Assembly (NCBI GenBank): GCA_964508365.1
Contig: CAZDTP010000093.1
Location: forward strand, 1 to 10,528
Length of the DNA: 10,528 nt
Reading direction: 5' to 3'
Source of the DNA: an uncultured archaeon
GTDB lineage: Archaea > Asgardarchaeota > Lokiarchaeia > Sigyniarchaeales > SOKP01
The position numbers were made by a program, and so were the translations under genes. A model generated the notes under the pieces. It saw only the letters and a list, made by a program, of their open reading frames with translations. It searched no databases and was not told the DNA's origin. This document shows positions 2,579 through 10,459 of this stretch, in pieces (position 1 is the stretch's first letter; the number at the start of each line of letters is the position of its first letter).

Positions 2579-3652
2579 ATGACAATTTTAAACCGAAAAA
2601 AAATACGACCTGATATTCTCAAAATCCAGGATGATGGATTTAAAGAAATAATGAAATTTATACTTCAATTTACGGAATTCGAAGAAAATAAGCGGTTTAA
2701 TTTTCCCAAAATCTATAAGAAAGTTCTGGATTTAAATGAACTTTTCTTTAAAAAAAAAGTTGGAATGGTTGAGCTCCATGATAAATTAACTGGTGAGGAA
2801 AGGAATTATATAACAAAATTATTACGTTATGCAACTGAACATTCAGCAATTCAAGAATTAGAAAACGATCCAATTCCGAAGGAAATTGAAATCAAATCTA
2901 TAACGCTTGATAAAATTTCTGCTGATTGGGTAATTCCCCCGAATCCCATAAAAGATTATGTAATTTTATACCTTCACGGGGGCGGATGGATACTTGGTTC
3001 TCCTCTGACTTGCCGAAAGTTAAATTCTGCTATAGCTAAAGCTACAAGTATTAAAATCCTTAGTATTGATTATCGCCTTGCCCCAGAACATCCATTCCCC
3101 TCACCATTAGAAGATTGTGTTAACGCTTACAATTGGTTATTATCAAATGGATTCAAAAATGACCATATAATCATCGCGGGAGATTCTGCTGGAGGAAATC
3201 TAACCCTAACAACTCTTTTAAAAATAAGAGATCAGAGAAGAGATTTACCTGCTGGAGCGATCTGCCTATCACCTGCAACAGACTTTACTTTAGCAGATGA
3301 TTCCTATTTTAAAAATGCCGAAACTGATCCAACATTAGCAGATGTCGGAATATTTTGGTGGTATGCTGCTTATCTTGCTGGAGAGGACCCCCGTAATCCA
3401 TACATTTCGCCCTTGTTCGCGGATTTAAAAGGATTACCTCCAATATTAGTCCAAGTTAGCTCATGTGAAATGCTTTATAGCGATACTACTCGCTTTGTTG
3501 AAAAAGCTAAGAAGGTAGGTGTAAACGCAATTTTACAATCTTGGGATGAAATGCCGCATGTATTTCAAGGAGAAAGATATGATCTTCTTCCAGAAGCTAA
3601 AGATGCAATTACTAAGATAACTAACTTCACTAACCAACTATTTAAAATTTAG
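2579..3652 (+). CDS. Hormone-sensitive-lipase family (family IV, Abhydrolase_3) esterase/lipase
   Basis: YLHGGGW oxyanion motif, DYRLAPEHPFP, nucleophile elbow GDSAGG, CEMLYSD (acid), MPHVF (His); purine-rich AGGAAGG upstream of the ATG. Confidence 0.93.
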   Translation: MTILNRKKIRPDILKIQDDGFKEIMKFILQFTEFEENKRFNFPKIYKKVLDLNELFFKKKVGMVELHDKLTGEERNYITKLLRYATEHSAIQELENDPIPKEIEIKSITLDKISADWVIPPNPIKDYVILYLHGGGWILGSPLTCRKLNSAIAKATSIKILSIDYRLAPEHPFPSPLEDCVNAYNWLLSNGFKNDHIIIAGDSAGGNLTLTTLLKIRDQRRDLPAGAICLSPATDFTLADDSYFKNAETDPTLADVGIFWWYAAYLAGEDPRNPYISPLFADLKGLPPILVQVSSCEMLYSDTTRFVEKAKKVGVNAILQSWDEMPHVFQGERYDLLPEAKDAITKITNFTNQLFKI

Positions 3653-4153
3653 ATCTACAAAAAATTTTTATATCATCAGGAAATTCGTGGACCGGTTTCA
3701 GAGAATTATGCAAATCTTTTGGAAACAATTAAATTAAACAAATTAGAAAAAGGCGTCCCTGTTTATAAGGGGTTAGGAGAAGAGAGCTGTATTGTAAATT
3801 TCAGTCCACTTGGTATTTCTTCATGTGTTTCTGAAGAGGATCATAAAAAGATGGAACTTATATCAATTGACGAATTTGTAAGAGAACAAGATCTTTCAAT
3901 AGGTTTGATTAAAATGGATGTTGAAGGTTATGAATTCGAAGCATTAAAAGGAGCAAAAAAAACGATTGAAAAGTTCAAATCGGTGTTATTAATCTTGATA
4001 TATCATCATCCAGAAGAATTATTTAGAACAAAAAAATACATTCAAGAGATTGAACCAAATTACGAATTTAAAATTAAACACTTGGCAGATATTAGATCTC
4101 TTGGAGAGATTCATTTAATTGCATGGCAAAAAAAAATTTTAACCTATTTCTAA
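3653..4153 (+). pseudogene. 5'-truncated FkbM-family methyltransferase remnant
   Basis: Central and C-terminal FkbM motifs are present (PVSENYANLLETIKLN, ISIDEFV, LIKMDVEGYEFEALKGAKKTI, IYHHPEELF). The N-terminal SAM-binding DxGAxxG motif is absent and there is no room for it after the esterase stop at 3652. The ORF-track start (TTG 3719) is an internal Leu codon. Confidence 0.75.
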
Positions 4154-4183: not shown

Positions 4184-4309
4184 TTATATACTGAATGATA
4201 TAATTTGATTTTCTCTTGACGATTGATATGCAGATTCTATGATTTCGTGAGTACGATATCCGATATCTAAACCAGGATAAGGTTCTATTTCTTTGTTCCT
4301 CCAAGGCCA
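4184..4309 (-). pseudogene. Probable C-terminal remnant of a Gfo/Idh/MocA oxidoreductase
   Basis: Manual translation: ...KEIEPYPGLDIGYRTHEIIESAYQSSRENQIISFSI* (TAA at 4184-4186). This resembles the terminal 'P...DG.....IIEAAY.S......' helix of Gfo/Idh/MocA proteins. No start codon; in-frame TAG at 4310-4312. Confidence 0.45.
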
Positions 4310-4401
4310 CTATATTAGTGCCTATTATATTAATTGTAATATGAATTTTTTATAAACAATAGTGTTATAAACTTATACATAATTTAGATCTTAAATTATA
4401 A

Positions 4402-4409
4402 AGAAGGTG
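4402..4409 (+). promoter_or_regulatory. Shine-Dalgarno-like site of the BAR-domain gene
   Basis: AGAAGGTG ending 6 nt before ATG 4416, similar to the archaeal GAGGTG consensus. Confidence 0.5.
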
Positions 4410-4415
4410 TTATAA

Positions 4416-5063
4416 ATGTTTAAGAAATTTATGGATAATTTAACAAATGCTTTAGGAATTACAAGCAATAAAATTAGTGAGTTAATTAAAGGAAGTAATC
4501 AATATATCAATGCAGAAGAAAATGTCACAAGAGAAATTAAAAAGACAGTTGCTGCATTAAAAGGTTATGCTGAAACGGAGACACCTTCCCTAGGTCAGGC
4601 AGTAAATTCATTAGCTTCTACATTTGAAATTATTGAAAAAGAAAGTACGGAAAAAGTCAAAAGACTTCGTGAAGAATTCATTAAACCGCTAAGTGATCTT
4701 TTAATTAGCTTACAAAAACTCCAAACTGAACAGAATGAAGCTCAAAAGGCTACGAAAGAATTAGAAAAAGCTGAAAAGCATCTAAGTAAAATCCAAAGCA
4801 AACCAAAAGAAAAATTAAAGCCAAACGAAATGCAAACAGCTGAAACAGAATTGAAAACTGCGAAAGAAAAAGCTGCTAAAGAAGAAGACGATGTAAAAGT
4901 AGCAACCGTGGAATTTAATAAAGTAAAATTAGAAAACATGCAAAAACTTCTTAAAAATATGGTGGATATTGAAACTGTTTTTCATAAAAAGATTCTTGAT
5001 TCCGTAGCAACAGTAAAAGTTAAAGCTGAAGCTATTAAAGTTGCCGAAGAATCAAAAATGTAA
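4416..5063 (+). CDS. BAR-domain superfamily protein, FAM92/CIBAR-like (candidate eukaryotic signature protein)
   Basis: 215 aa, all-helical with heptad pattern and no TM segment. Motifs YAETETPSL, VKRL..EFIKPL, AETEL and IETVFHKKIL fall at the same spacing as YAATETPHL, VERL..KVVEPL, AETEL and IEMLFHGKAL of human FAM92A/CIBAR1 as recalled from memory. Confidence 0.8.
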   Translation: MFKKFMDNLTNALGITSNKISELIKGSNQYINAEENVTREIKKTVAALKGYAETETPSLGQAVNSLASTFEIIEKESTEKVKRLREEFIKPLSDLLISLQKLQTEQNEAQKATKELEKAEKHLSKIQSKPKEKLKPNEMQTAETELKTAKEKAAKEEDDVKVATVEFNKVKLENMQKLLKNMVDIETVFHKKILDSVATVKVKAEAIKVAEESKM

Positions 5064-5083
5064 ACCTAATTCTCTTATTTTCA

Positions 5084-5093
5084 TTTTTTTTTT
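5084..5093 (+). terminator. Oligo-T tract, likely archaeal-type terminator of the BAR gene
   Basis: T10 run starting 21 nt after the stop codon at 5063. Confidence 0.5.
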
Positions 5094-5351
5094 CCCCAAA
5101 TTTACTTCGATTCCTATTTCATAAATCCTATATATAGATTGAAATGTATCTAAAGAAAAATGGCAATTGGGTTTAGCGTGAAATAACAATAATAAGTATA
5201 TTTTCTCATTTCATAAGTGCTCTTTTTCGGGTATTCTGACTAAAATAAGGAAGACGTTTGAATTATTAATAATAACTTTAATAATGATAATGTTCTAAAA
5301 TTTCTAAGAACACTTTTTTATAGAAAAGAAATCTTTAGGAAGAAGTAAATC

Positions 5352-8607: not shown

Positions 8608-9258
8608 ATGCAATTTTTCTTAAAAAAATTTAATAAAAGATCCAAACACATTTTTATTTTGACCACTATAGCAATTCTTTAATCTTTAAGTAATCTTTTC
8701 TTACTGAATTTTAATAACGAATTTACTAAACAGTTATTCTCTAATGAGGATTCCAACTTCGTAGATGATGAATCCATAAAATCTGAATTCAACCATTTAT
8801 TTACTTCTAAGCTTGATCTTGCTCCAGCTTGGGGACCCATACCGGTAGGTGATTATCCATTTGACGATAATTGGATTGGTGATATAAATAATGATTCTTT
8901 AAACGATGTGGTAGTTCCCACACTTTTAGCGAATATTGCTAACGTCTATTACCAAGGATCTGATAATAGTTGGCCTTCTGCTCACAATCATACTTTGGAT
9001 ATAGGATTTAACGGATATAGTGTAGATTTTGGTGATTTAAATAATGACAGTTTAACTGATGTTATTACAAGAGCAAAGGGAAATATAAGAATTTATTTTC
9101 AATACGAAGATGGATCGGGAATATCATCGACCTATAATCGATCACTAAGTTATAATGGTGAAGGTTTTGTGAGAATTTTAGATTGTAATCAAGATGGTCT
9201 AAACGATTTTGTCGTAGATAGCTGGGAATATTGGTCATATTCTAACAATTTTTCATAG
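8608..9258 (+). pseudogene. Disrupted secreted FG-GAP/VCBS-repeat protein
   Basis: ATG 8608 (GTGAGGG upstream) gives MQFFLKKFNKRSKHIFILTTIAIL*SLSNLFLLNF, a signal/anchor peptide broken by TAA at 8680-8682. The same frame continues through three repeats (GDINNDSLNDVVV, GDLNNDSLTDVIT, LDCNQDGLNDFVV) and ends in TAG TAG at 9256-9261. Confidence 0.75.
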
Positions 9259-9815: not shown

Positions 9816-10232
9816 TTATTTTATGAATCTAACTTTATGGATTAATTCTTCTGTGGTTATTACTTCGATTTCCTTTTGGTCTCCTTTAAGCTTTTTGTCA
9901 TTCGACCATATCTTAGAATCTATTACTAGTGCGCAAGCTAGGTAAACCGTATCTTTTGGATCCGGAGAAAACTTCTCTGCTTCTTCTATAAATGGCCTAA
10001 TAATATTTTGAGGAATAATTTCTATCTTTTCCCTCAGTATGTTTAAATAGTGCTCAAAATCTTCCTTAGAACGGTTTGTCTTCTCAAGTATAAACTTCTC
10101 ATATTTTATAAATTCATCAAAAAGAAACTCTGGACCAAAAAAATTTAATTTATCACTAAGTAATAGCTCAGCAGTTAAACTATCTTTTATCAACGAAGCA
10201 AATAAGATATTGGCATCTATCACCAATTTCAA
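9816..10232 (-). CDS. vapC: PIN-domain ribonuclease toxin (VapC-like)
   Basis: MKLVIDANILFA (first acidic residue of the PIN site), LFDEF, DPKDTVYLACA, IWSNDKKL; 138 aa; TTG start 2 nt after the antitoxin stop. Confidence 0.9.
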   Translation of the reverse strand: MKLVIDANILFASLIKDSLTAELLLSDKLNFFGPEFLFDEFIKYEKFILEKTNRSKEDFEHYLNILREKIEIIPQNIIRPFIEEAEKFSPDPKDTVYLACALVIDSKIWSNDKKLKGDQKEIEVITTEELIHKVRFIK

Positions 10233-10234
10233 AA

Positions 10235-10459
10235 TTAATCCCTCTTATAACGTTTCACCAATAATTGATTTACTTCTTGTCCTAATTTCAAAGCGTCATC
10301 TATAGTAATGTCGCTGTTCATTCTAAAACCTTTCAGAAAACTCAACTGAGCTATTTTTTTCTTTATAGAATCTCTCGCAACTTCCGACCAATTTATCTCT
10401 GGAAATTTTTCCATTTCTTTTTTAAGCTCTTCTGGAATCGATAAAGTTATATTCGCCAT
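10235..10459 (-). CDS. vapB: Ribbon-helix-helix (CopG/MetJ-type) antitoxin, VapB-like
   Basis: MANITLSIPEELKKEMEKFPEINWSEVARDSIKKKI fits the RHH strand-helix-helix pattern; 74 aa, directly upstream of and closely coupled to the PIN gene. Confidence 0.82.
   Translation of the reverse strand: MANITLSIPEELKKEMEKFPEINWSEVARDSIKKKIAQLSFLKGFRMNSDITIDDALKLGQEVNQLLVKRYKRD

Follow-up and report, generated by a model that had tools for sequence, protein, structure and literature searches.

The gene at positions 4416 to 5063 of the window encodes P0001, a Lokiarchaeial protein that is well supported as a classical BAR protein of the FAM92-like kind and that belongs to a known but uncharacterised family. 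The window is the whole stretch of DNA that was analysed, namely the entire 10,528-base contig C93 of a 4.07 Mb genome in 149 contigs with a completeness rating of 100%, and its closest DNA matches are salt-marsh metagenomes. The BAR fold forms a crescent-shaped dimer with which eukaryotes sense and bend membranes, and eukaryotic BAR proteins connect membrane curvature with the cytoskeleton. FAM92/CIBAR is a protein of the cilium and the mitochondrion. Our joint reading, which we consider probable, is that P0001 is a stand-alone protein of classical BAR fold, confined to Lokiarchaeia and related to FAM92/CIBAR, that forms an antiparallel dimer and serves as a curvature scaffold through its tips and its N-terminus, without Chibby.

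The report of the first Lokiarchaeum genome already included a putative BAR domain protein (PMC4917890), in agreement with the statement in a preliminary description of this DNA that BAR proteins had already been noted in Asgard genomes. With Lokiarchaeial BAR proteins known since 2015 and the family labelled BAR or FAM92-like in databases, P0001 adds detail. The Lokiarchaeum protein and the BAR proteins of L. ossiferum (PMC13716822) are alike P0001 in kind and in archaeal class, as compared by description. A full-text literature search found no paper linking Asgard or Lokiarchaeal BAR proteins with FAM92/CIBAR. This Asgard BAR family, whose eukaryotic relative can be traced, offers a small soluble protein with which to probe whether membrane-shaping machinery preceded eukaryotes, and it could reveal how such machinery works on archaeal lipids. 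Specific mutants and comparisons follow from the kinship to FAM92, from the conservation of the dimer core, and from the loss of the central basic patch.

The gene, its flanking signals, and the predicted elements of its product are as follows:

4403 to 4409, forward strand: Shine-Dalgarno-like GAAGGTG, 6 nt 5' of the ATG, read from the sequence; function putative
4416 to 5063 including the stop, forward strand: FAM92-like BAR domain protein gene (P0001), 215 aa, from the open reading frame list and translation, with no internal stop
4419 to 4574, forward strand: helix 1, aa 2-53, predicted by AlphaFold2, with the basic amphipathic MFKKF start and the dyad contact V37
4584 to 4796, forward strand: helix 2, aa 57-127, predicted by AlphaFold2 and family consensus, after the conserved YAETETP turn
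4788 to 4823, forward strand: lysine-rich distal tip KIQSKPKEKLKP, aa 125-136, counterpart of FAM92A R201/R203/R205 by residue mapping
4827 to 5030, forward strand: helix 3, aa 138-205, predicted by AlphaFold2, with the IETVFH motif and H190, the top-confidence self-contact, which aligns with FAM92A H264
5070 to 5093, forward strand: T-rich tract with T10 at 5084-5093, 3' of the TAA stop; likely an archaeal terminator

The gene had been described as a stand-alone reading frame of 215 aa with its own Shine-Dalgarno sequence and T-tract, and both signals were found at these positions. Against five orthologues, the dN/dS of P0001 was 0.12-0.28, and it is therefore a real gene under purifying selection. 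Metatranscriptome contigs from four libraries, 90-99% alike, overlap the reading frame. They are a weak hint that close orthologues are expressed, since RNA libraries can contain DNA. These contigs do not cover the flanks at 4300-4409 and 5075-5200, and because they stem from relatives that are 90-99% alike, the uncovered flanks mark no transcript ends. The window was found to hold no tRNA genes or Rfam families.

Sequence kinship to FAM92/CIBAR

The Pfam FAM92 model (PF06730) matched P0001 with 33.2 bits, above its curated cut-off of 23.6 bits, and the match runs from residue 9 to 199 and from profile position 20 to 210 of 225. The next Pfam family, BAR_3, scored under its own cut-off, and other helical families gave weak sub-threshold matches. 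On the whole genome, the P0001 reading frame was the sole match of the FAM92 model, which had zero matches in 14 control genomes; the match is thereby a reciprocal one. Compared by HMMER with the solved CIBAR1 chains, P0001 matched 9uhd with an E of 7.5e-9 and 8ceg with an E of 4.7e-7. A single-sequence phmmer search of 1.84 billion proteins also reached animal FAM92, at whole-library E values of 5e-5 to 4e-4. Judged by these sequence comparisons, the match of P0001 to FAM92 is far beyond chance.

The preliminary description had set P0001 against human FAM92A by eye. All of its motifs were recovered in the same order by HMMER, but the alignment has three indels (of 1, 2, and 1 residues) and not the one 2-residue indel that had been given. 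The motif pairs, with P0001 named first, are YAETETPSL and YA(S/A)TETP(N/H)L, VKRL...PL and VERL...PL, AETELKTA and AETELQRA, and IETVFHKKIL and IEMLFHGKAL. In the MAFFT alignment, ELIKGSNQY pairs with ELCQIFAAY (L23 with L99 and Y30 with Y106). Identity to CIBAR1 is about one residue in five (20-21% in Foldseek), as had been counted by hand.

A profile built from 50 archaeal members of the family (A1) set FAM92 clearly apart from other BAR proteins. It matched CIBAR1 (9uhd) with 84.8 bits and an E of 4.2e-23, collinear over the full length, versus 25.7 bits and an E of 5e-5 for the next solved BAR protein, amphiphysin, with arfaptin, IRSp53, SNX, endophilin, and BIN1 all under amphiphysin. 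When the window's own clade was taken out of the profile, CIBAR1 still scored 84.7 bits versus 26.5 bits for the next BAR protein. Since the gap is unchanged without that clade, the affinity to FAM92 belongs to the whole archaeal family. At E of 0.001 or less, FAM92 was matched by 24 of the 50 members, BAR_3 by 20, and BAR by 13, and for single divergent members the Pfam BAR, BAR_3, or Vps5 scores often equal or exceed the FAM92 score. The nearest relative of the family outside archaea is FAM92/CIBAR. The specific kinship to the FAM92 lineage that had been proposed is thus upheld by the profile scores and by the first fold match, which is also 9uhd.

CIBAR1/FAM92A and CIBAR2/FAM92B (PF06730; PDB 9uhd and 8ceg) have, like P0001, a three-helix classical BAR monomer of about 210 residues. 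Both carry, in collinear order, YA..ETP.L following helix 1, FI.PL within helix 2, and two helix 3 motifs, AE.EL at its beginning and then IE..FH. Alike in both are the hydrophobic dimer core, the dyad residues (H264/H190 and L113/V37), and the basic distal tips. P0001 differs from FAM92 in that identity is only about 20%, in that the central basic patch, invariant in FAM92, is missing, and in that there is no tail past the BAR domain (215 aa versus about 290). The setting differs as well: neither Chibby nor a partner of the DZIP1 type is present in the genome, and cilium and mitochondrion are both lacking in the organism.

Other BAR proteins share the fold more than the sequence. Amphiphysin/BIN, endophilin, arfaptin, APPL, and ACAP1 are alike P0001 in fold (TM 0.7-0.8), in the antiparallel dimer, and in the basic amphipathic N-terminus. 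Unlike these classical and N-BAR proteins, which the family profile scores at 26 bits at most, P0001 has no SH3, PH, or other added domains. Asgard Vps5-BAR homologues have been described, with a Thorarchaeia form fused to Vps28 (Eme et al. 2023, PMC10307638). They belong to the BAR superfamily, as does the P0001 family, one divergent member of which (P0139) scores best against Pfam Vps5. In the window's genome, the Vps5 model had zero matches.

Predicted fold, dimer, and charged surfaces

The fold, the kinship, and the dimer geometry of P0001 described here are computational. AlphaFold2, run with the A1 alignment, predicted a monomer of three helices (2-53, 57-127, and 138-205) with a pLDDT of 94.9 and a pTM of 0.81. 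The first Foldseek match in the PDB was the BAR domain of FAM92A (9uhd), at TM 0.88 and an rmsd of 1.9 A over 207 columns with 21% identity, followed by 8ceg and then by APPL, endophilin, arfaptin, ACAP1, and SNX. All PDB matches listed were BAR domains; classical BARs fitted best, and I-BAR and F-BAR matches fitted worse, at TM 0.33-0.53. A search of the ESM Atlas agreed with this result. On the predicted model, P0001 is a genuine BAR-fold protein with a three-helix antiparallel monomer.

P0001 is rich in lysine and glutamate, which, together with the weak sub-threshold Pfam matches to other helical families, would suit a generic coiled coil or a helical protein of the PspA or ESCRT-III kind whose likeness to FAM92 came about by chance or composition. 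We regard this as extremely improbable, given the full-length collinear match to CIBAR1 at an E of 4e-23 and the fold match at TM 0.88. PspA, Snf7, and ESCRT-III were absent from the sequence and fold matches of P0001; a better match to PspA/ESCRT-III or to a generic coiled coil, which the description had named as counter-evidence, did not appear. With the score gap also persisting when the window's own clade is left out, we ruled out this candidate.

A symmetric homodimer of the BAR-like monomer was predicted: three runs gave an ipSAE of 0.81, whereas no control out of three exceeded 0.00. Contact agreement between runs was at least 98%, with a partner pLDDT of 90. In the tool's calibration, 20 of 30 proteins with a solved one-chain pair came up to this ipSAE mark, compared with 1 of 23 solved single, counts that are only rough for P0001 as our own alignment was used. 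The dimer pass may also be due to likeness to solved BAR dimers. Helix 1 and the beginning of helix 2 form the predicted interface together with the C-terminal half of helix 3, and the most confident self-contacts of this interface are H190 with H190' and V37 with V37'. The three-helix BAR monomer and the dimer are both what the preliminary description had expected of such a prediction.

To compare P0001 with mouse FAM92A residue by residue, 50 archaeal sequences were aligned with 14 animal ones in MAFFT, and published residue lists (PMC12269497) were mapped onto them. In FAM92A, joint mutation of H264 and L113 destabilises the dimer (PMC12269497), and these two residues align with H190 and V37, which are exactly the predicted dyad contacts of P0001. 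The dimer core positions (L99, Y106, L113, I124, Y127, L139, F142, F146, F253, F256, I257, L268, and Y271 in FAM92A numbering) are hydrophobic in 44-50 of the 50 archaeal members.

By this alignment, basic residues are conserved at the tips and lost at the centre. Mutating the central basic patch of FAM92A (R108, K109, R112, R114, and K116) lowers its liposome binding by about 90% (PMC12269497), and this patch is invariant across the animal sequences aligned. P0001 has N32, A33, N36, T38, and E40 at these positions, where basic residues occur in 7, 0, 23, 1, and 6 of the 50 archaeal members, respectively. Across the family, the median net charge of the central helix-1 stretch is -1, and 15 of 50 members are net positive there. 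Tip residues R201/R203/R205 of FAM92A correspond to K125/Q127/K129 in P0001, where 48, 28, and 43 of the 50 members are basic, and the distal tip has a median net charge of +3. The concave face, as mapped by alignment, thus appears basic at the tips and neutral or acidic at the centre. A K-x-K basic amphipathic N-terminus is common in the archaeal family. The hydrophobic moment of residues 1-14 of P0001 ranks 15th of 202 segments, which is not discriminating because all helices of the bundle are amphipathic. Overall, the family has a median pI of 6.1, and many of its members are acidic.

In the prediction, two three-helix chains pack antiparallel via helices 1 and 3 into a symmetric dimer with the dyad positions of mouse FAM92A. 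For membrane binding, the cellular site, and any actin link of P0001, we infer the following. This dimer would be a curvature-sensing or curvature-stabilising scaffold that lies against the membrane from the cytoplasmic side. Plausible sites are the tubular protrusions and necks that are typical of Lokiarchaeia, and the Lokiactin system may act together with it. The lysine-rich distal tips, which are conserved, and the N-terminus, which is basic and amphipathic, would do most of the binding, with the central concave patch, strongly basic in FAM92A, being neutral in P0001. P0001 would act without Chibby.

The same fold and kinship could instead belong to a protein that mainly scaffolds other proteins, such as actin regulators or small GTPases, and that bends membranes little or not at all by itself. 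The loss of the central concave patch and the acidic pI of many members are consistent with this, as are the fusion of a family domain to HEAT repeats in P0166 and the tandem BAR-BAR proteins of other genomes. In L. ossiferum, two BAR-domain proteins were found in a Lokiactin co-immunoprecipitation (PMC13716822), below significance; their presence there favours our joint reading, and their failure to reach significance fits the protein scaffold. The conserved basic tips and K-x-K N-terminus speak against such a role. Moreover, to our knowledge, every well-studied protein with a BAR fold binds membranes. We consider a mainly protein-binding scaffold unlikely, and a membrane-curvature scaffold remains our preferred reading.

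Distribution and origin of the archaeal family

A word-index search returned 213 relatives of P0001, the best 120 of which are 76-90% identical, 201-240 aa long, and from metagenome genomes of Lokiarchaeota/Promethearchaeota. Several relatives of 80-84% identity carry the NCBI name 'BAR domain-containing protein', and in the ESM Atlas the archaeal cluster goes by 'FAM92 protein domain-containing protein'. When 1.84 billion representatives were searched exhaustively, 73 clusters were recovered, with a weak tail that includes animal FAM92 (Lottia, and Mobula CIBAR1). The archaeal family is diverse, with members down to 19-25% identity to P0001. Two relatives that are 80% identical, P0106 and P0115, have the NCBI labels Hermodarchaeota and Thorarchaeota; the taxonomy labels of those metagenome genomes are probably at fault, and otherwise gene transfer would account for them.

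We surveyed 331 Asgard genomes of at least 80% completeness with the A1 family profile. Strong matches were confined to the class Lokiarchaeia, where they were observed in 46/117 genomes of family f1, 8/10 of f3, 2/2 of f4, and 2/2 of f7, and matches outside the class reached 21 bits at most. One of these, in another Asgard class (G044:C267:329-943), is a full-length weak match of 20.3 bits over profile positions 5-210 inside a 735-aa reading frame, possibly a BAR domain of very remote kinship that has been joined to other domains. In the window's own family, the gene was found in 46 of 135 genomes, and in its own genus in 11 of 41, with several family genomes rated 99-100% complete lacking it. 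Because it is absent from about two thirds of the genomes of its own family, including 100% complete ones, the gene is not essential.

Several members depart from the single-domain form. Single reading frames of 448-547 aa with two BAR domains in tandem were observed at G138:C1:4484207-4485541, G138:C1:2539872-2541236, G135:C1:2596690-2598057, and G137:C69:4809-6131. These genomes belong to the window's order, and two of them are closed; in the closed pair, the tandem fusions measure 459-547 aa and single-domain forms occur too. Such a frame would be, from its sequence, a covalent BAR-BAR 'dimer'. The 6.0 Mb genome G138 has five domain matches to the archaeal BAR family. P0166, a metagenomic protein of 467 aa, has HEAT repeats at 2-204 and a BAR-family domain at 248-441, a fusion that hints at a scaffold role.

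A maximum-likelihood tree was built solely from 50 sequences taken as archaeal, metagenomic ones among them, and 11 animal FAM92 sequences. A single long branch, with an SH-aLRT of 100 and a length of about 2.4 changes per column, lies between the archaeal and the animal sequences, and neither group is nested in the other. Two clans so joined are compatible with either direction of descent. The preliminary description had called the gene a candidate ancestor of FAM92, and this was not borne out, given the strong matches in Lokiarchaeia only and the long branch without nesting. A profile of animal FAM92 found only animals among its best 120 matches. An ESM Atlas cluster of oomycetes, with FAM92 on 38% of its members, is only a lead towards a wider eukaryotic spread.

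Within archaea, the gene tree disagrees with RpoB. By RpoB, the window's genome is 94.7% identical to its congeners G261 and G262 and 93% identical to G184 and G223 of genus g12, whereas its BAR protein is 65-68% identical to the former and 87-88% identical to the latter. This conflict between the BAR gene tree and RpoB, along with the patchy occurrence in the genus, suggests either exchange or the differential loss of two lineages.

Instead of vertical descent from an Asgard ancestor, an ancient horizontal transfer might have brought the family from an early eukaryote into Lokiarchaeia, or the family might have passed from Lokiarchaeia to eukaryotes. Strong matches in a single class among the 331 Asgard genomes, with at most 21 bits elsewhere, are in keeping with this, as are the patchiness even in the window's genus and the conflict with RpoB, which indicate gain, loss, or exchange. 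However, the archaeal clade has both depth and diversity, with identities falling to 19-25%, and some 2.4 changes per column lie between it and animal FAM92, with neither nested in the other. Furthermore, the rest of the contig is ordinary archaeal DNA. Given the clean separation of archaeal and animal sequences, nothing points to a recent transfer, and contamination is excluded. Weighing both sides, we judge an ancient transfer in either direction to be improbable. Also unlikely, and put forward only tentatively, is the idea that FAM92/CIBAR has its true prokaryotic sister in the Lokiarchaeial family; the classical BAR domain would then have its origin in Asgard archaea, FAM92 would be the eukaryotic lineage that kept the most ancestral form, and the role would be tip-mediated shaping or sensing of actin-supported protrusions.

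Partners and neighbouring genes

The best match of the Chibby Pfam model in the whole genome had an E of 0.29 and 12.9 bits, which is below its cut-off and no better than in control genomes. The earlier observation that no Chibby-like partner is visible in the window thus extends to the genome. We know of no archaea with cilia. Searched with the BAR, Vps5, and IMD models, the genome yielded no second BAR gene.

The neighbours of P0001 include an oxidoreductase, methyltransferases, alpha/beta hydrolases, and an aldehyde dehydrogenase. No conservation of this neighbourhood was observed in other genomes, except for a divergent upstream methyltransferase at two loci, and the neighbours give no functional clue. 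In those two genomes (L003 and L009), the methyltransferase adjoins the BAR gene directly upstream; in the window, the alpha/beta hydrolase at 2579-3652 and a reading frame at 3719-4153 stand between the BAR gene and the methyltransferase at 1182-1904. The frame at 3719-4153 (forward strand, 144 aa, TTG start) covers no more of the FkbM methyltransferase profile than positions 90-152 out of 173 and is probably a truncated gene.

Two further regions of the window were noted. At 9816-10459 on the reverse strand lie a PIN_2-domain protein of 138 aa and, just before it, a 74-aa reading frame without a Pfam match, and the pair resembles a VapBC-like toxin-antitoxin arrangement. Between 8345 and 9815, only short reading frames are found, including a 116-aa FG-GAP repeat fragment at 8908-9258, and a larger gene for a surface protein may have left this region behind.
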